Numbered from the stretch's first letter, positions 14,801-50,757 are shown. The stretch: DNA of 64,000 bases from Podarcis melisellensis (GCA_964234715.1 OZ174277.1); one strand, 5' to 3'. Numbers and translations: made by a program. Notes: generated by a model not told the origin, from the letters alone.

Positions 14801-17800
14801 TCAGGCACTAATTCTTAGTTACAAAGTTCTTATAATCACCTGAAATGGAAACAGTAGAAGATGAGAAGGAAACAAACGTTGCTGATTTTCCAAGTAGAGA
14901 TGGAGTAGCCCTGCTTCCTTTTTCTCCCTCTGCTGTAGCATGATGGAAGGACAACCACCAGTTAATTGAAGGAGGAGCATGATGAAACTGGCTTCTCAGC
15001 AGGATGGATGAATCTTTTTCTGAGTTTCTCATTCTTCCAGTCTTCAGTTTGCCATATGACTGCAATTTTTTTTTCCAAGAACAAATATCCTCATAGTGTG
15101 CATTTCTCCTAATATGTGTATTTTAATACCATTTTGCTACCCATACACATTTTTGCAAGCCATACAATGCACCTTTGAATGTAACCTACTTTTTGTACAC
15201 TTTTTGTTTGGCAAACAGCACCACAAAATTCATGTTTAAGTTTGTGTACTGTTTCAAAAAGTGCAAGTTAGGTAAGTTTGCAGAAATATGTGAACGAAAC
15301 CAAATTTCTCCCCCATCCCTACTTCTCAGTAGATTTATGGTAGGTGGCCCTGCTTCTCTTTTCTTCCTGCTGCGGCCTGCTGAACATGTATCTGCCATTG
15401 AGCCCAATGTAGACTAATGTAGAAAAATCCTTATCCTAATTTCCAATATTTTGACATTGGCTTTGGAGTTTTAAGCATTAAAATGACAGGAGTGATGCCC
15501 TAAAATAGGGTGGCATTTCTCCACATATAGCAACGGTGTTGCTGCTCTCTTTGATAATTTTGTTGTGTAATCTTTGCACTTCCTCAAACTTTTTTCTCTG
15601 CAGAAAGTTAACTCTGAGAAAGTTAACACACTTTGAAAATTGCTAGAAGTTCTAACTCCCGCACTTCCAATAATTCCAAATGCTTGTGTTGTAAGAGTCC
15701 AAATTTAGGAGCACATATTTCATGCAAAAACTACATTTGCAGTCCAGTGCCAAGACATTTTTGAGTGAAGAGATGTTAACAGCTGAGTGAATGTGGCAAT
15801 CACACACATTTTATTTTTAGATTCAGCCTGCTAGGAACTGAATCATTAAAGAGGGAAGTGAAACATTTTGTAATATCCATTTTTCTTTTAGATTAATTCC
15901 TACTAATGGTGGGACCAGACACATAAATACAGGACATTGCTTGTGTTGTAATGTCACAATAGGAAGAAGGTTGCATCTTTTCACTTGGCTTGCCTATATA
16001 CGTGTTTACCATCCTGGCCCTTCATCCTGAGACTAGTGGGCTTCAGTCACAAAGCTATGCATTATGAGTAAACAGGTTGAACACTAGGTTCGAGTTGTTT
16101 TTGCTAAAAACAACTTCAGGAGAAGGGAAATTGGAGCAGGGAAGCAGCAGAGAGAAGGTGCTTAATCCTTTCACCACACACAGATTATCTGCTCCAAATC
16201 ACCCTCAGATGGTTGCACACACAAACATGTCACACAAACACATATTTTGAATTCTGCATACATAAAACAGTTTGGGAGGAAATCTGTTTAGAGCTTATAA
16301 ATGACAGGCAGGGGAAGAGTTAAGTACCTTCTCTTCTCCTTCAGTCCCCACACTGCTCTGCTTCAGATTCTCTCTCCCTAAAGCTGCTTTTCAAAAAAGA
16401 AAAAAAGAAAAAAGGCCAGCACTGGGGACTCTCACATTCATATTTGCATATATGGCAATGTGTAGTCAGTGTCTCTGTTATCAGTGCTCCAAAAACCTGC
16501 AAAACTTATTTAACCAAATAGGTCAGTGGGGTGGGGGAAAGGATATTACACCAATATTACACTAACATAAATTAAGAGAAAAAATTCTTAATATTGTGAT
16601 CTCTGATTGGTTTTCTAATTGCAGCTTACTTTAAAGTTTTATAACAGTTAGTGAATTCCAGTGATTAATTTCTTCATGCTAACACAGATTATGGTGAGTA
16701 TATTGAACCCTGAAGAAACCTACACAGCCAACTCTCAATAATCATTGATGTTTTTAAATTGAATTAGTCCTTGGTGTAATGCGAACCCTACAACAACAAG
16801 GGAATTATACAATGCAGTATTTAATTCTTGTAAATTTGGGCACAAGGCCGATTAAGGTGTAGCTGGGTGAAATAAGAGGCCTACTCAAAACCTCCAGTTC
16901 TTCAAGGCTTGTGCTTCCACACCCCAGTGGCACTTACTCTGGCCTGAGTGGAACAAATAGAGAATGAAGGTGCCATTTCCTGCAGCACATTACAGAGGGG
17001 GATAGCTGTCCTTCTAATGTCAAGGTATCTACCTCTGACATTCTTTCAGGTCTTAGCTCCCTCCATCTTCTCTTCAGGGGAAAGAGTATGCTGTGACAAG
17101 TATTGATTGAATTCTTCTACAATTGTATCCTGCTCTTCCTTCAAGATGGTTATAATTGAGCAAGATCAGGTAGATCAGAGAGGATGGGGTAGAGGTATAT
17201 GTCTCTCATTATGAAACAGACTTCAACTTTTACATTTTAGTTAGCAATACTCTACTAACCGTTTTGGACAGTATTTAATGTTCCATTTAAATGCTACAGT
17301 AAGGCTAAATCAATGGGATATGTTCCCAACTCTTAACACTTCAACCTCTCATTGTTTCCTATAGCAACAGCATATATTCATCTCTGGTATTGATGCTTAG
17401 AGTAAATGCAGCCTAGGAAAAATATATTGGGCCCAATAGTCTGGAATATTTTTATGTGCTGAATTTTGGGTATAAGGCAGAATGAGAATGATGCATGCAT
17501 ATATGATGTGTGTTAAAGGGGAAAGTAAAGTCAACATTTGCAGCTTAGTCCTAGTCCTAGTCCGAAGTGTGGAAAGTGGGTCAAAGAACAGACAATTACA
17601 TACACTAACCATAGTTATAATTTAATGCATTACAATACAAAAATGAATCAATTCAACACCTACAGGTCATTTAAAACACACCAGAAGTTTCAGGGAATAT
17701 AAAATAATGCTCATAGTTCAATGAACAATACCCAGTACCAATAATATATATATTATACCCACAATAAGAGAATCACATGAAGTTTTACCTCTTCTTTTAT

Positions 17801-18268
17801 TTAAAAAATATTTATTACAAATCCCAGGCAATTTGCTTACTTGCTTGCTTCCTTGCTTGCTTGTCTGGGTGCAAAAACAGGAAATGAGGACAAAATAAAT
17901 ATATTCTAGAAGCTCATCTGCTATAAACACTTTTTATTTCTACAAGTGCATCGCCATGACAATAGCACCATGACAATTAAAGGCTGGGAAAGGGAGCACA
18001 AAACTAGACAGGCATGAAAACCTCCTAATTAAATTATAACTTGTGATTAATATAGTAGGACTTAAAACAATTACTAATGATTGATATAGGAGACTTAAAA
18101 GAGCATAACAAGCACGTTCCGTAGATGTGATCAACTATGCATTTAAGAACAGGTCAAAGTACAATGTTTTCCTGAACTCAATGTGAGCTGAACATTCTAA
18201 GGTGATGAGTGAATGTCTTAGTATTAGAATGGTTTGTGCAGTATCATGTACAGAAGCAAAGCTTAGAA

Positions 18269-18329
18269 GCAAGACTTCCCATCAGGCCACAGTCATGTGC
18301 AAGACTTCCCATCAAGCCACAGTCATGTG
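18269..18329. repeat. 2 x 30-bp tandem repeat in U3 (enhancer-like)
   Basis: GCAAGACTTCCCATCARGCCACAGTCATGT, two copies with one mismatch. Confidence 0.9.
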
Positions 18330-18350
18330 TAGAATCACAGCATCCCATCA

Positions 18351-18371
18351 TCTCCCCTTTCTTTTTTATTT
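18351..18371 (-). promoter_or_regulatory. Polypurine tract preceding the 3' LTR
   Basis: AAATAAAAAAGAAAGGGGAGA immediately followed by TG (start of U3 at 18350). Confidence 0.85.
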
Positions 18372-18374
18372 AAT

Positions 18375-18533
18375 GGTGAGTGGGACAAAAATACATCGGG
18401 ATACGTGGTTTGCCAGCGCATACCTGAAATAATTCAGCCCACCGATGTTGTTGTGTGAGTTCAGGGTGAATGGGACAAAAAATACCTCGGGATACGTGGT
18501 TTGCCAGCGCATGCCCGAAATAATTCTGCCCAC
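18375..18533 (-). repeat. Two ~68-bp direct repeats (18375-18442, 18465-18533) between env stop and PPT; each is self-complementary
   Basis: Read directly: GTGGGCWGAATTATTTCRGGYATGCGCTGGCAAACCACGTATCCCGAKGTATTTTT(T)GTCCCAYTCACC, two copies. Confidence 0.92.
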
Positions 18534-18547
18534 ATCTCCCCTAACGT

Positions 18548-20025
18548 TTACTGTTGGTGCTGCCATTTCGCAAAGTAGGCAGCAATGATTTTATTGGGTG
18601 GCTGAGGAGGAGAAAAACACTGAGACCAAAGGCGTATGAGACCAGGGATGCATTGGATGAAGCAACATAGCAAAATTAATATACATACTATGACAATAGT
18701 ATATTGAAAAAGATTGCGAAGCCAATTCAAATTTGGCAACCAACCAGTGAGCCACTGGGTAAACGAATCCCAGAGGCCAGGAAGTCCAAAGTCCTGTTGA
18801 TGTGATATGTGAGATTTTGCAAATGAGAAATTTGTTTTTGAATAGCTTTAGAATTGTCAGTAATATTAAAACAGCACATGTCATCCACTTGTTCACAGCC
18901 ATAATGATGAAGCATCAGCAAATAATCAATTGCAGCGCGATTCTGTAAGAGTCCATGTTGGAGTTCACTCTGCTCTTTATTCAAAAGGTGAAGGGCTTGT
19001 GAGGTAAAGTTCAGAGCTTTTGCTGCGGAGCAAGCTAAAGCATTAATATTCCTGCTATTCCGTACAGCCAATCCAGGGACTCCTAAGAGAGAGACAGCTA
19101 GAGAAATATATTCAGATCTACTAGGGAGAGAAACAGAATCATCACAATCATTAGTCAATTCTACAGAGCGTCGATATTGAGAGCGGAATAAATGATGCTT
19201 CTTGGGTAAAATGATGGACAAACAGCTTAAGCAACAAGGTGTGCAATGGCTGATGTTTGCCGGAATATAATTGAATGTATAGCCTGGGCACGACCAGAAC
19301 CAGCCTTCAGGCAGCTCTGTATATTTATATATATATGAAATATATACATAATTAGAGCAATTAAAATTGTTATCCTTGCCCATTTTCACACAGTTGGTTT
19401 TTGTCCATTTGACCATACGGGCACAAGTGGCATTAGAGGAGGCCACGTATGGGGTTAACAAATCAATTGCCAGAGATGGGCGTCGGCGCAGTTGGTTACC
19501 CCAGTTATGGTAACCGGAATAACCAAGAGTGCGAAGAGAATCATTTTGGGGTAGGGATGAATAAAACTAGGTATCATTTTGCATATCAAAAGGGTCATGG
19601 CAAACAGGGATAAGGCAAGAACCAAGGATTTGACCTATAGATACCTGTTGAGTTAGGCAAAAAGAAGAAACATTGAGGGTTTTTGCAAAAGATTCCCACA
19701 CATTTATTGGTGTGGAATCACCGATGTTAGGAGCGGAAGCAGAGAGGGGCAAAAACAAAGCACTGAAAATGAGCACTATCATGGAATTTATGTTGAGGCA
19801 AGAAATGAGGCACAGAAGCAAATTATCAGGGGTTGCTTCCAGGTGCTGTTCCTTTCTAAACTGTTCAGCTTGAAGTGAGAGTGATTTTATTTGGCCCCAC
19901 GTCACTGGTTCATTACGATTTCCCCGCTTGCGAGTCCTGGGGGGGCCGGGCGTCGCATCCTGGGCGATCTGCAGTTGACCGTCGAACTGTGGTATCGGAT
20001 TCTGCAGGGCCTGTTGCCATGCCAT
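18548..20025 (-). pseudogene. env: Retroviral env (~492 codons reconstructed): Rec/Rem-like signal peptide plus alpharetrovirus-type SU/TM; premature TAG at 19567-19569 and 1-nt frameshift at ~18797
   Basis: ORFs 19567-20088 and 18727-19461 are in frame across one TAG; ORF 18548-18739 supplies the TM anchor and tail. Motifs: NVWESFAKTLNVSSFCL, LPEGWFWSC, QYRR|SV, Cys-flanked internal fusion peptide, LQNRAAIDYLL (18916-18948), CEQVDDMCC (18871-18897), CCFIQCIP. Confidence 0.93.
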
Positions 20026-20110
20026 GATAGAGGCGGATGCAGCGTGCGGGAACCCAGCGAGCACCCTGTGGAGTAGAAACTGCAGCATAACCCTTCCCCC
20101 AGGTAATCAC
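19913..20110 (-). pseudogene. pol: Retroviral integrase C-terminal remnant (beta/alpha class II type)
   Basis: VITWGKGYAAVSTPQGARWVPARCIR matches the class II IN motif (W)GRGYACV...WVPxRxIR. It contains the env splice acceptor TTTCTACTCCACAG (AG at 20067-20066). Confidence 0.85.
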
Positions 20111-20123
20111 GTTGGGGTCACCA
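20106..20123 (-). promoter_or_regulatory. Primer-binding site complementary to tRNA-Trp
   Basis: TGGTGACCCCAACGTGAT, 17/18 identical to the ASLV tRNA-Trp PBS TGGTGACCCCGACGTGAT, 4 nt after a ...CCTTTCA LTR end. Confidence 0.88.
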
Positions 20124-20679
20124 GATTTGAAAGGATAACCTTGCCTCCACCCACTTCCTTCCTTGCTTAAGATGTGTACCCTTATAAAACTAACACTACT
20201 ACTTAGATTAACTATTTACGATAATCTAAATCTGAGTACATAGATAATTCTAGCCTAGCTTAATTAACCTGATTGTGCTCAGAAAGGTAGGGGAAGGAAA
20301 AATACTAAAGGACAGCTGGAGTGAGGAAGGAAGAGGCAGGTCTGTATGGAGAAGTGTTGTAAAAGAAATAAAATGTAAACATTTCAATTTTTTATTTTAT
20401 TTGAAAAACACATCCACCTTGAAAGATAAAAGATACACTGGATGTTTGCTTCACATCACTCCTGAGAGTCCACCATTAGCACTCTGGTCATTTGCCCTTT
20501 CAGATGGCTCAACTGATAAAGTGTATAGGTTCTGAAATTAATGTAAACTATTATCTTGTAATCATTACTGGTTTGGTTTTACAGTTTTAAAGTAACACAT
20601 TACCATGCAATACCAAAAGAGACATATGTTTTAATATAATTTTATACAATTATTTATTAATTCCATCCTAACCCCTTTC

Positions 20680-21400
20680 TTTTTTTTGTAACCTTTTATT
20701 CATTTTCTATAACCAAACCACAAAAAAAGAAAAACAAAAACAAACAACACACACCAAAGAAAAAAAGACAACATCAACCAAAACAAAACACATGAACAAA
20801 CCAGAATACAAACATTAATTAACAACAAATAACGGTTGACTTCCCTCCATCTCGGTTTTGGGTTATGTAAATATTAAATCCATTCTGCAGTTTTTCATTT
20901 TATACCGTCTACACATTGCAAGGGTTATATTAAACCTACTGTTGGTACATCACCCCTGTGAAATTGCAAAAAATGTATAAGACTGGTGATAAAAGGTGTT
21001 GGAAGTGTAAATCTAAAGAGGGAAGTTTCTACCACATGTGGTGGAAATGTTAAGAAGTTAAAAAAAAATTGGGAATCCATATACAATGAACTGAAAAAAA
21101 TACTTAAATACACTTTTGTTAAAAAGCCTGAAGCCTTCCTTCTGGGAATGATCGGAGATGAGATTAAGAAAGAAGATCATATAATGTTTCAATACGCAAC
21201 TGTAGCTGCCAGGATTCTGTTAGCACAAAATTGGAAAACCCCAAATATCCCGACCATTAAAGATTGGCAAATTAAATTATTTGAATATATGGATTTGGCA
21301 AAAATGACGCAAAACATCAGACAGCAAAAAGGTACAAAGTTTATTGACGATTGGACCAAATTCATAACATATATGGAAACAAATTCTAGAGATATAAAAA
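20680..21400 (-). mobile_element. 5'-truncated, 5'-inverted L1 LINE (3'UTR and poly(A) on -, 20680-20944; ORF2 C-terminus on +, 20941-21400)
   Basis: ORF2 CCHC region RWYITP...CWKC...FYHMWWKC and KKPEAFLLG...AARILLAQNWK. AATAAA plus poly(A) on the - strand. TSD CCATCCTAACC(T)CCTTTC at 20663-20679 and 21401-21418. Confidence 0.9.
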
Positions 21401-21438
21401 CCATCCTAACCTCCTTTCAATGAGTTTAGGATAGAGTA

Positions 21439-22956: not shown

Positions 22957-23970
22957 GGTGTTGGTAATGTCACTGAAGCCTATGATGTCAACAAACCATT
23001 TACTAACCAGCTTTGAAGCTGTACCCATCTCTTAAAAGTGGGTTCCTTGCATTTTGATCAGTAATATGCCTAATAAGAAAGGTGAAATACACCTAAATAT
23101 AATACAAATTCATGTACAATCAAAATAAAGCTTAAACGGTTAAACCTAAACAATTAGTTGCTAACTAGACAGTCTTAAGATTTATTATTATATAAAAAGC
23201 AGATATAAATGTTAATGGATGAGGTTTACCAGATCTGTTATTTTGAAATTGCTATGTATTGTATCGGAGAAAGACTCTAAAACAGAAAATTTACATTATG
23301 ACATCGATCCTATAATTCCCAATTCCTTGCCCAGTATTGATTATTTTACAAAATATTTTTGCTGTTTTCAGCATACTGAAACTCCTAATGACTGCTTCCA
23401 ACGGCTCCATGTAGGTATTACATAGAATTTGGGATAAGATATTTCCAAGTAAACGTACATTGGATTGGGCTGCATCTGGAGTCCAGAGCCAAAAGCTTCC
23501 ACGCGCACCTTTAGCTCTCTAAAAGTAATCAGATACCTTTGTCATTCTGAGTAATGGTAACACACTAAATCTCTTTTCCTTTTTATTTCGAACATTTGTA
23601 CTGCACTTTTTGGCCAAAAGGGCTCCCAGAGTGCTTTGCATACAAACGAAATAAGAAAGTCCCTACCCACAGGCTTATAATCTTGAAAGAAAAATTACAT
23701 GACACACAAGGGAAGAGTGATGCAGAGGGATGGGGAAATATATCACAGATTTCTAAACAGTGTACCAGGTAGCAGAGTTCCAGGGGCATGGCGTGTCTGA
23801 TGGAGCTGGGCGTCTAGCAAAGCTGATATAATGAGCCCCGTCGCTCCCTTTGTCTCTCCCTCTGAGGCAGCCTAATGGAGTGGCTGCTCCCAGGTGAGGG
23901 GAGAGGAGGCCTGATGGAGCTGACCTCTCACAGCTGTTGATGATCTTTCCAGGTGATGAATAAGGATTTA

Positions 23971-24880
23971 ATTTGGAGGCCACGCTCCTCTGGGCAGGAC
24001 ACGAGGCTCTTTCTGCAAGAGACGTGCGTGCGTCTTAGCAGAGAGGAAGGAAAAGATGCTCCACCAAGGAGACTGGCTTCTGCAACAGCTGAAAGCCAAG
24101 TGTGCATTTGGGGGGGGGGTGCTTGTGTCTGTTTGGCGGGGCAGCCCCCTTTTTTCCTCTCTCCCTCGTTCTGCCGCTTTGCAAGGAAGTGACTGAGAGG
24201 AGCGTTTTCCTTTTGCGAAGGGACCCACCCCGAGGGCGGAGCCTGCCTTCCTCTTTGCTCTCGCCCAGCGCCGATGCCGAGGGCTGCCTTGCGCCAGGTA
24301 CGTGTCCCGGCAACTCTTCTTCGCAGCTTCCTTCTGGGGAAGGGAGAGGGGAGGGCAGCCCTGGTCCTGTCTGAGCGCAGAAGCGTCTCCAGTGGATGCA
24401 AGCTTAGGTCTCAGCAGGGAGAGAGTTTTGGGTGCTTTGGAGCCAGCCGTGTCAGTGGAAAGAGCTCGCTCGCATTAGTGGGATTTTCCTTCTGCTCTCT
24501 CGAGTCCGTATCTCCATTCATTGTGTGGGGCGGGGGGAGGCCGGGCGGCTGGAGGCAACGAGCATCTTCCTGCTACATGTTGGCTCCCTTGTGCTCCGTG
24601 CAGCATGCTCTGCTCCAGCTTCCCTTCTTCCCCGTTTCCATGGAAACACCAGGCCAGACCATCGTCACCATATAGACTTGTGTGTTTCGAATGGGTGCGT
24701 TTGTGTCAGGGTCGGACACGCGTTGGTTGCCTTCTCACGTTCGGCGAGGAGAAGGTCGGGGAGGGAACGAGGTTGCTCAGGAAACGGCCGCTTTGCTGAA
24801 GTTGCTTTGCCATCCACCAACGGGAGGTGGTGGTTGTCTAAAATAATCCGCTTTGGCTGATGAAATGCAACAGGGTGCTC
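23971..24880 (+). promoter_or_regulatory. AGPAT4: CpG-island promoter, distal copy, with putative non-coding exon 1 ending at 24297
   Basis: CpG-rich in a CpG-poor background. ETS AGGAAGTG at 24184, GC box GGGCGG at 24234-24239, donor CAG|GTACGT at 24297/24298, palindromic X-box at 24634-24647. Upstream of the first coding exon. Confidence 0.65.
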
Positions 24881-32500: not shown

Positions 32501-32921
32501 CCTTGCTCTGAAACTCCTAATGACCATTCCCAGCAGCTTTATGTAGATATTACAGTAATTGGTTCTGGAGTCTCATACGGCACCTTATAGTATAGCCACC
32601 AGGGGCCCTTGAAGATTTTACCTTTAATGTGGCCATCTTTCGCACACATTTATGGGTGTGAGCTCTACTGAACACAGCAGGACTTACTTCCAAGTGACCA
32701 TACAATGGCTTGGGGCCTTGGACTGTATCTGGTGTCCAGAGCCAAAACCTTCCACACACCAGGTGGTGTGTAGTCAGAGATTTGTCATTCTGGGAAATGG
32801 TCGCACTCTAAATGTTTCCTTTTGTTAATGAACTTTCCAGGTGATGAGTAGTGGGGGGGGGGCGCATTTCCCCGTTTGTAATACTCACGGGCCATGTTTC
32901 ATTTAAATGAATAATGATCTG

Positions 32922-33937
32922 ATTTGGAGGCCACGCTCCTCTGGGCAGGACACGAGGCTCTTTCTGCAAGAGACGTGCGTGCGTCTTAGCAGAGGGGAAG
33001 GAAAAGATGCTCCACCAAGGAGACTGGCTTCTGCCACAGCTGAAAGCCAAGTGTGTATTTAGGGGGGGGTCTGCCTGTGTCTGTTTGGCGGGGCTTTGAG
33101 AAGGACAGAGGGAAGCAGCCCCCTTTTTTGTTTCTCTCCCTCCGGCGCTTTGCAAGGAAGTGACTGAGAGGAGCGTCAGCAAAGGAGCCTGTTTTCCTTT
33201 TGCGAAGGGACCCACCCCGAGGGCGGAGCCTGCCTTCCCTCCCCTCGCCGCTCGTGTCCCGCTTTTGCTCTCGCCACGCGCCGCTGCCGAGGGCTGCCTT
33301 GCGCCAGGTACGTGTCCCGGCAACTCTTCTTCGCAGCTTCCTTCTGGGGAAGGGAGAGGGGAGGGCAGCCCTGGTCCTCTCTGAGCGCAGAAGCGTCTCC
33401 AGTGGATGCAAGCTTAGGTTTCAGCAGGGAGAGGGTTTTGGGTGCTTTGGAGCCGGCCGTGTCCGTGGAAGAGCTCGCTCGCATTAGTGGGATTTTCCTC
33501 CTGCTCTCTCGCGTCCGTATCTCCATTCATTGTGTGTGGGGGGCGGGGGGAGGCCGGGCAGCTGGAGGCAACGAGCATCTTCCTGCTACATGTTGGCTCC
33601 CTTGTGCTCCGTGCAGCATGCTCTGCTCCAGCTTCCCTTCTTCCCCGTTTCCATGGAAACACCAGACCATCGTCACCATATAGACTTCAGAATGACACCC
33701 GGCAATGTCCCTTGTGTGTTTCGGATGGGTGCGTTTGTGTCAGGGTCGGACACGCGTTGGTTGCCTTCTCACGTTCGGCGAGGAGAAGGTGGGGGAGGGA
33801 ACGGGGTTGCCCAGGAAAGCAGACATTTGTGACATTCTATGGACGGCCGCTTTGCTGAAGTTGCTTTGCCATCCACCAACGGGAGGTGGTGGTTGTCTAA
33901 ATAATGAGCTTTGGCTGATGAAATGCAACAGGGTGCT
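32922..33937 (+). promoter_or_regulatory. AGPAT4: CpG-island promoter, proximal copy, with putative non-coding exon 1 ending at 33307
   Basis: Near-identical to 23971-24880. ETS at 33155, GC box at 33221-33226, donor CAG|GTACGT at 33307/33308, X-box at 33647-33660. Confidence 0.7.
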
Positions 33938-49583: not shown

Positions 49584-50220
49584 GTGAGTCTTGACTAGTA
49601 TTTCAATCAATTGCCCTTTACAGGAACTCTATGAAGCAAATTGGAGGTCACTTAGATTTCCGGTTGTTCCTTTGTGCATCTTCTTTTTTTAAATTGGCAC
49701 TTTTATAACTTTCCTTTTTATTGGCTTGGAAGAGTAGAACTAGCTGAAGAAGAGGATGAGCTCAATGTTGCATGGTGGTATATCAGTTTATGTGGGCCTG
49801 ATATATGTGTGTGTGTGTGTGTGTGTTTGTATCTCAAACCTACCAATCAGTTGTATACCATGGCCAGCTAAATGCTTGACAATCCCGTTTGAGTAATCTC
49901 AAGCAAGAAACAAAACCAAGATATTTATCCCCTTCTTCATAAGATGCCGTACTTGGTTGGTGGACTGTGAACAAGTTGCATATCCCTGCTTTGTAATAGT
50001 AATGATTAATTCAAAGCACAGCAACCAGGGTGTTGTCTGGCTGAGGGCATTTGGAGCACATTGCTGCAATGTTATTCCAGTGATGCTCTCTCCAAAGGGA
50101 TGCATGAATGTATATAAAAAAGTGTACAGGTGTCTCTTTAATTATCCCTCCTCATGTTATAGATATATTGCCTTTTATTTAAATAAACTATTCTCTTCTG
50201 CCTTTTCTTCTGTTTCTCAG

Positions 50221-50382
50221 AGTTCCAAAGTACTTGCAAAGAAAGAGCTTGCTTCTATGCCAATCATTGGCTGGATGTGGTACTTCCTTGAGATAGTTTT
50301 CTGCACGCGAAAGTGGGAGGAAGATCGGAAAAATGTCGTGCAAGCCCTACTCAATCTCCGGGATTATCCTGAAAACTTTTGG
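50221..50382 (+). CDS. AGPAT4: AGPAT4 coding exon
   Basis: SSKVLAKKELASMPIIGWMWYFLEIVFCTRKWEEDRKNVVQALLNLRDYPENFW. 162 nt; CAG/GTAAAC boundaries. Confidence 0.96.
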
Positions 50383-50405
50383 GTAAACCATTTGGCAGTA
50401 GAGTA

Positions 50406-50757
50406 AAGTAAAAGTAAAGGGACCCCTGACCATTAGGTCCAGTTGTGACCGACTCTGGGGTTGTGGCGCTCTTCTTGCTTTATTGGCCGAGGGAGCCGGC
50501 GTACAGCTTCCGGGTCATGTGGCCAGAATGACTAAGCCGCTTCTGGCGAACCAGAGCAGTGCACGGAAACGCCGTTTACCTTCCCGCCAGAGTGGTACCT
50601 ATTTATCCATTTGCACTTTGACGTGCTTTCAAACTGCTAGGTTGGCAGGAGCAGGGACCGAGCAACGGGAGCTCACCCCGTCACGGGGATTCGAACCGCC
50701 GACCTTCTGATCGGCAAGTCCTACGGTTTGTGGTTTTACCCACATCATCACCCGCGT
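50406..50757 (-). mobile_element. Sauria SINE
   Basis: Full body with B-box; TSD CAGTAGAGTA (50396-50405 and 50758-50767). Confidence 0.9.

Follow-up and report, generated by a model that had tools for sequence, protein, structure and literature searches.

An endogenous retrovirus remnant in Podarcis melisellensis as a probable member of a lizard class II family with a betaretrovirus-like core, an alpha-type envelope and a Rec-related envelope leader

The window analysed here, a 64,000-nucleotide stretch of the Podarcis melisellensis genome (GCA_964234715.1 OZ174277.1), contains on its minus strand a remnant of an endogenous retrovirus (ERV) that consists, in this order, of a primer binding site (PBS), an integrase tail, an env gene, a 3' untranslated region (UTR), a polypurine tract and 375 bp of a long terminal repeat (LTR). 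This remnant is very probably a defective copy, shortened by an internal deletion, of a young and multi-copy class II ERV family of lizards, with a betaretrovirus-like core and alpha-like surface (SU) and transmembrane (TM) subunits of Env. The initial annotation of this DNA depicted a chimera, intermediate between or recombinant of alpha- and betaretroviruses and possibly a "complex" alpha-like virus. The presence of an alpha-type TM, a tRNA-Trp PBS and a Rec-related Env leader on one element is borne out; for the core, neither an intermediate position nor the notion of a complex alpha-like virus finds support, with gag, protease, reverse transcriptase (RT) and integrase (IN) all scoring best on betaretroviruses. 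A chimera of a beta-like core and an alpha-like env is an already known kind, reported in caecilians (PMC12690878), so that the supposed novelty is limited to the paired 3' hairpins and to the conservation of a Rec-related leader among class II ERVs outside mammals. A Rec-like leader on an alpha-type Env, the tandem hairpins of the family and the lizard family itself were not found in the literature searched, outside of which most subscription papers lay. The window copy is a dead remnant, of interest only as a pointer to its ERV family; together with its turtle, iguanian and caecilian relatives, this family breaks the pairing of long leaders with beta-type Env, and the recombination point falls behind the leader.

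The window copy comprises the following features.

20106..20123, minus strand: primer binding site for tRNA-Trp(CCA), TGGTGACCCCAACGTGAT, with one mismatch, at a CpG
20105..20109, minus strand: deletion junction between the PBS end and the integrase C-terminal domain, with 4-5 nt of microhomology; homology to sister copies starts at 20109
19913..20109, minus strand: integrase C-terminal tail up to the pol stop (19913), identified by Pfam IN_DBD_C and frame readout
20065..20080, minus strand: predicted env splice acceptor, read from the sequence as a pyrimidine tract with AG at 20067-20066
19732..20025, minus strand: Env leader (signal peptide) of 98 residues, related to Rec of human endogenous retrovirus K (HERV-K) according to Pfam, relatives and env-frame selection; its parts are a conserved N-terminal Trp motif, a basic patch (19938-19915), a TWG helix (from 19902) and a hydrophobic segment, and its cleavage site is a by-eye prediction
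19168..19731, minus strand: SU, alpha-like, with an in-frame stop (19569-19567) and a furin motif degraded in this copy
18548..19167, minus strand: TM, alpha-type, with a Cys-flanked internal fusion peptide (19146-19030), an immunosuppressive domain (ISD, 18948-18916) and CX6CC (18897-18871)
18466..18536, minus strand: 3' UTR hairpin, repeat 1, with the apex TGGCAAACCA; -32.9 kcal/mol, z -5.9; covariation
18376..18446, minus strand: 3' UTR hairpin, repeat 2 (direct repeat D2); -23.8 kcal/mol, z -3.1
18351..18368, minus strand: polypurine tract, in the same place ahead of the 3' LTR in sister copies
17976..18350, minus strand: 3' LTR, U3 part only (375 bp), cut before R/U5; sister LTRs are 70-97% identical and always end at 17976

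The tRNA-Trp PBS and the class II integrase tail, both of which had been read from the sequence in the initial annotation, are confirmed: the former matches the 3' end of the host tRNA-Trp(CCA) with the single CpG mismatch, and the latter scores 21.2 bits with IN_DBD_C, the cutoff being 21. The two adjoin because about 4.7 kb, i.e., the pre-gag leader, gag, pro and most of pol, is gone from the window copy in comparison with sister copies, for which 32 longer sister stretches were taken; sister copies L023, L033 and L034 likewise have PBS-adjacent deletions. Aberrant strand transfer during reverse transcription is a mechanism of such deletions, and the loss of gag-pol likely occurred through a template switch from the PBS end to the short matching integrase stretch. 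The last 37 codons of pol overlap env in a different frame (env ATG at 20025), and a Podarcis-like gene model (P0036) enters the exon of the predicted acceptor at the same residues. In addition to the SU stop, the window copy has a TM frameshift at about 18799/18798, ahead of the membrane anchor; its Env would be non-functional. The span originally assigned to the element, 17930..20370, proved too long on both sides. The segment 20127-20370, a candidate 5' LTR, is unique in the genome and scores 61 against the family LTR, compared with 55 +/- 8 (maximum 80) for shuffles; no 5' LTR is left in this remnant. On the 3' side, no LTR homology is seen past 17976, a point within U3, and an AATAAA near 17936 was rejected as the poly(A) signal of the element, its flank alignment being equalled by 73 of 300 shuffles. 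As a separate observation on this locus (17967-20141), one contig of run X2 joins the 3' flank via about 790 other bases to the integrase tail, another contig of that run spans the PBS junction, and a contig of run X6 departs from the window at 20141 into unlike sequence; on this weak contig evidence, the ERV locus may differ between related species.

A genome search yields 43 matches to the family, a lower bound in which some matches are pieces of one locus; 28 of them are on contig C19 (38.8 Mb, about 2.5% of the assembly), which, at a guess, could be the W chromosome. The longer copies, of about 7.6 kb, contain an LTR (470-640 bp in the family), Trp PBS, gag, dUTPase-pro, pol, env and a second LTR. 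The paired LTRs are 96.7-99.4% identical in all eight copies compared and 99.5-99.8% identical in three more; the family is therefore young. Target duplications of 6 bp are legible in at least three copies, and 11 of the 20 sister loci first examined have the same PBS start behind the 5' LTR. The PBS pattern of the family occurs at 13 places in the genome, and three of the seven scanned are tRNA-Trp(CCA) genes, so that priming by Trp is shown from the host's own tRNA. Pairwise ratios of nonsynonymous to synonymous changes (dN/dS, or omega) are 0.06-0.08 for TM in five pairs, with 0.42 in one frameshifted pair, and 0.12-0.34 for SU, which suggests that the family spread with a working Env.

Several derivatives of the family are worth recording in their own right. 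A 3.4-kb non-autonomous form (L094:424-3842), flanked by LTRs 99.8% identical and by a 6-bp target duplication, has lost the greater part of gag, pol and the env leader; its boundary is common to nine matches, three of which were taken as sequence. In seven other stretches (L025, L030, L036, L037, L038, L075 and L076), all of them deleted copies, a piece of RT abuts the hydrophobic segment of the env leader; the break in RT has the same position in two diverged subfamilies. Splicing was rejected as the source of the internal joins in sister copies: the eight joins examined all lack GT-AG, and short microhomology is seen at several of them. The same genome also contains another class II family, older and divergent (L072:2850-3270 and L073:2900-3270, minus strand), with the same leader type and an alpha-like SU.

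The core genes of the longer copies are laid out as gag, dUTPase-pro and pol in separate, overlapping frames, with the dUTPase N-terminal of the protease and a G GGA AAC heptamer within the gag/pro overlap. Pfam searches identify Gag_p10, Gag_p24, two zinc knuckles, dUTPase followed by protease, and the RT-RNase H-IN array; the dUTPase domain, in its own pro frame, scores 34.5 bits (cutoff 22). Gag starts with Met-Gly, with a predicted splice donor just ahead of it. In searches of PDB, the family IN scores 230 bits with mouse mammary tumour virus (MMTV) vs 156 with Rous sarcoma virus (RSV), Gag 122 with HERV-K and 83 with Mason-Pfizer monkey virus (MPMV) vs 34 with RSV, and the protease 50 with MPMV vs 34 with RSV; the best match of RT is HERV-K (269 bits). 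Judged by the Gag, protease and IN scores and by the frame layout, the core is betaretrovirus-like rather than alpharetrovirus-like. With Alpharetrovirus the family shares the tRNA-Trp primer; a core closest to avian sarcoma-leukosis viruses (ASLV) and a single gag-pro frame without dUTPase are not observed. Nor is this a canonical mammalian betaretrovirus, given the Trp rather than tRNA-Lys PBS and the ISD in TM. Two considerations weaken the placement of the core: it consists of best-hit scores without a tree, and ASLV RT is absent from the matches listed for comparison. As read in L035:4826-5626 (minus strand), the family dUTPase looks degenerate, with the C-terminal GGFGST-type motif (PMC1224870) missing; this motif is kept in the sea-turtle relatives P0039 and P0040.

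The envelope subunits tell a different story. All env motifs that the initial annotation had aligned with gp85/gp37 of avian leukosis virus (ALV) and RSV are present in the window env, and the ASLV-like character of TM is upheld: the best PDB match of the window TM is ASLV gp37 (55.7 bits), with reptarenavirus and filovirus GP2 at 38 bits or less and a chain related to murine leukaemia virus (MLV) at only 12.9; in a further TM comparison, ASLV gp37 scores 74.9 bits and the next match at most 46, and mammalian gamma-type chains rank much lower. The Cys-flanked internal fusion peptide, ISD and CX6CC are all marks of the alpha type. Two sister SUs lack CXXC, and the single CxxC of the window SU, near its end, occurs in none of the 16 rows of alignment A1. 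The expected match to Avian_gp85 failed to appear in Pfam searches with the window env and four sister envs, and 3 of 15 homologues match it weakly. The top match of SU in a fold search is EAV-HP Env, to be taken as a lead only, given the poor AlphaFold model (pLDDT 56.7, pTM 0.36). The nearest named Env is from Podarcis lilfordi (87% identity over the whole Env), and the closest SU/TM after Podarcis is P0003 (68%), of which the N-terminus differs. The SU/TM was likely gained by recombination, with the breakpoint directly after the long Env leader that the virus already had.

This leader can be followed well beyond the window. It matches HERV-K_REC at E 4e-4 to 6e-4, with 20-21 bits against a Pfam cutoff of 27.5, so that the Rec similarity anticipated by the initial annotation is detected at a score below the cutoff. 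An exhaustive search of 1.84 billion proteins gives 30 leader relatives at E<=1e-3; 20 were looked up, and the 13 that are named come from tortoises, sea turtles, lizards, snakes and a caecilian. Of 27 scanned relatives, 14 match the Rec profile, all in the same part of it; the cutoff is exceeded by one (P0051, 38.5 bits, found by the window leader at E 1e-3), and the other 13 show no match at E<=0.05; 6 of 15 aligned homologues match weakly. A word-indexed search with the leader alone finds only a Podarcis protein, and all ESM Atlas matches of a turtle leader are under 0.9, with a sub-threshold structural lead to an ERVK-6 Env-like cluster. The same leader precedes an alpha-type SU/TM in proteins of Podarcis, Mauremys, Sceloporus, Anolis and Caretta, a CXXC-bearing gamma-like SU in Rhinatrema (P0027) and, in Hemicordylus (P0052), a TM whose nearest match is filovirus GP2, not ASLV. 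The leader is not particular to the window family: in proteins of reptiles and caecilians, the envelopes behind it are of three or more types. Several leader-bearing gene models have beta-type gag or dUTPase-pro upstream; since the leader precedes different envelopes in the company of such genes, it is likely part of the class II backbone, with envelopes swapped behind it. Because it overlaps the integrase tail, the leader would travel with pol while SU/TM cassettes are exchanged. A Phrynocephalus protein (P0037) is, like P0052, a lizard class II ERV Env with a filovirus-GP2-like TM behind the same leader.

The region shared by pol and env has 20 variants among 11 copies; 11 of these are synonymous for env and 4 for pol (P=0.003 against 0.24). 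Omega is 0.05-0.14 for leader residues 1-37 in five of six pairs (0.45 in the sixth) and 0.27-0.41 for the TWG helix. These values show that the leader is under purifying selection in the env frame. The window leader also has a basic patch with 4 K/R in 7 residues and a W-x2-I-x2-L-x-L pattern of the nuclear export signal type, the last hydrophobic position of which is not conserved. A role of the leader in RNA regulation is plausible, albeit putative. A number of observations pull in the opposite direction. Apart from the sub-cutoff score of the window leader, the sister leader L035 gives no Rec match; the match spans the helix (profile positions 26-70) and not the profile start; and the best-conserved element, the N-terminal Trp motif, lies outside the matched part. 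The basic patch is labile: of 35 leaders, 11 have four or more K/R within 7 residues and 24 have three or more, and one has none. The region-specific selection tests rest on few changes, and several deleted subfamilies have little or nothing of the leader left, as would be expected with help in trans and also with a dispensable leader.

Between the env stop and the polypurine tract, there are two repeats of about 70 nt, each of which folds into a long hairpin, and at least one hairpin is found in 24 of the 29 stretches examined; the exceptions are one interrupted copy, a stretch that ends within env and three divergent families. In an alignment of 30 copies of the repeat, pairing holds for 96.8% of the cells, compared with 34-56% in slid controls, and 6 of 20 pairs have two-sided changes. 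The number of such pairs was reached by 5 of 500 shuffles. Less favourably, 127 shuffles reached the pair-type count, and the test is lenient, given that the copies are closely related and the structure comes from their own alignment; the covariation is supportive, not decisive. An Rfam search of 17800-20500 gave no matches at E<=1. In form and position, the hairpins fit either a response element, as for Rej of Jaagsiekte sheep retrovirus (JSRV), or a constitutive element, such as the constitutive transport element (CTE) of MPMV or the direct repeats of RSV (PMC3185594).

Taken with the leader, the hairpins suggest a putative Rej-like system of RNA export or translation. In the parent virus, the leader might direct Env to the endoplasmic reticulum (ER), be cleaved and then act on unspliced RNA via the 3' UTR hairpins, in the manner of JSRV Rej or the MMTV signal peptide (SP), a scheme to be held tentatively. 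Somewhat more doubtful is the broader scenario in which Rev-like regulation by the Env signal peptide is an ancient class II trait, present in reptiles and caecilians, with the leader welded to pol, alpha-, gamma- and filovirus-like envelopes swapped, and the leader of the present family acting on the duplicated 70-nt hairpin. With a compact, duplicated, covarying hairpin beside a Rec-related leader, the question of how retroviral RNA-export regulators arose becomes accessible to experiment. The strongest competitor, with a probability only slightly short of even, is a simple virus with cis-acting export, in which the tandem hairpins alone recruit host factors; the long leader would then be no more than an inherited signal peptide that serves structure or trafficking. 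The direct repeats of RSV and the 3' stem-loop of MPMV indeed work without a viral protein (PMC3185594), the leader is best conserved in the Trp motif and the TWG...TPEN helices rather than in the basic patch, and, of 8 examined copies in which the join to env falls beyond the TWG helix, 7 keep at least one hairpin. Against such a passive leader speak the strong env-frame constraint on residues 1-37, which are dispensable for ER targeting, and the long Arg runs in sea-turtle leaders; JSRV, moreover, combines a CTE with Rej (PMC3185594), so that cis-acting export and a Rej-like leader are compatible.

The known systems nearest to the lizard family differ from it in instructive ways. HERV-K(HML-2) Rec, MMTV Rem/SP and JSRV Rej likewise involve a long Env leader overlapping pol, with a basic patch followed by a Rec-profile helix, and a structured element at the 3' end; unlike these, the lizard family has an alpha-type SU/TM and a short, labile basic patch, and is known here from sequence alone. 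Its PBS is Trp, whereas those of HERV-K, MMTV and JSRV are Lys (PMC3621094). Long multifunctional signal peptides are assigned in a review to beta-type Env, and short ones to gamma- and alpha-type Env including that of ALV (PMC9967133); at 98 residues, the family leader exceeds the 21-64 residues or so of MLV, ALV and human T-lymphotropic virus (PMC9967133). The caecilian ERV-AB-Mun combines a class II pol, a separate pro and an alpha-like env (PMC12690878; bioRxiv 10.1101/2024.07.05.601823). As described there, it resembles the lizard family, together with the Microcaecilia dermatophaga betaretrovirus, in the separate gag, pro, pol and env frames, the alpha-like env and the recent insertions; its length of about 7.3 kb is also close, and the two differ, in a comparison by description only, in the lizard host and in LTR length (325 bp in ERV-AB-Mun). 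According to PMC13568524, alpha-like envelopes are ubiquitous among reptiles, in association with gamma pol. The alpharetrovirus-like envelopes of reptiles, amphibians and bats (Mab-Env3/4, CHIRalphaEnv) share with the family the Cys-flanked fusion peptide, the ISD and the lack of CXXC in SU (PMC13568524), but the bat lineage and its saurian relatives have a gammaretroviral pol, and the alpha-like bat Envs have signal peptides of 16-32 residues (PMC13568524). MPMV (type D) and the avian avibeta2 are similar in that a beta core captured an Env of another type by recombination; theirs is of the gamma type, whereas the Env captured by the lizard family is of the alpha subtype, with the beta-type leader kept.

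ASLV, RSV and EAV-HP share direct repeats in the 3' UTR with the family, and theirs is the closest solved TM structure; unlike ASLV, the family has its own pro frame with dUTPase and a Gag starting with Met-Gly right behind the predicted splice donor. ASLV is primed by tRNA-Trp and typically makes 6-bp target duplications, as the lizard family does. The joint occurrence of a Trp PBS and an alpha-type TM would also be expected if the family were a true intermediate, descended from the class II branch leading to avian alpharetroviruses, with both traits ancestral and with ASLV later losing its dUTPase, its separate frame for pro and the greater part of the leader. Avian alphabeta intermediates are described (PMC3482500, PMC1224870), a continuum from beta through alphabeta to alpha has been proposed for birds (PMC3482500), and pol and env of caecilian ERV-AB reportedly cluster closest to alpharetroviruses (PMC12690878). 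Such a descent is nonetheless unlikely: Gag, protease and IN fit beta references clearly better than alpha ones, PBS type can be common to unrelated ERVs (PMC8922424), and alpha-like env also occurs on gamma, epsilon and ERV-L pol (PMC13568524, 10.1101/2024.07.05.601823, PMC12690878). The avian alphabeta group is, furthermore, defined by the lack of dUTPase (PMC3482500), yet dUTPase is reported in 21 of 67 (PMC1224870).

Chance similarity to Rec, produced by an amphipathic helix followed by a hydrophobic run, is very improbable. The sub-cutoff scores, the missing L035 match and the 13 relatives without a match would be in keeping with it, and it is opposed by the recurrence of the same profile positions in 14 divergent relatives, by the link from the window leader to P0051, and by a leader length and pol overlap that fit betaretroviral leaders, which exceed 90 residues (PMC9967133). 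That the window copy is a co-opted, syncytin-like env gene, as an env-only remnant on a large contig in a group with known env co-option (PMC13568524) might suggest, is scarcely credible in view of the SU stop, the TM frameshift, the degraded furin motif and the missing 5' LTR.

Elsewhere in the window, just upstream of the ERV remnant, 20700-21423 (plus strand) is a high-copy repeat without a Pfam match, which we take to be a C-terminal fragment of open reading frame 2 of a LINE-like (long interspersed nuclear element) repeat. Two similar GC-rich blocks, 23928-24860 and 32808-33858, lie about 9 kb apart and are apparently a local duplication. An exon at 49897-50406 (plus strand) presumably encodes part of an AGPAT-family acyltransferase, which it resembles.

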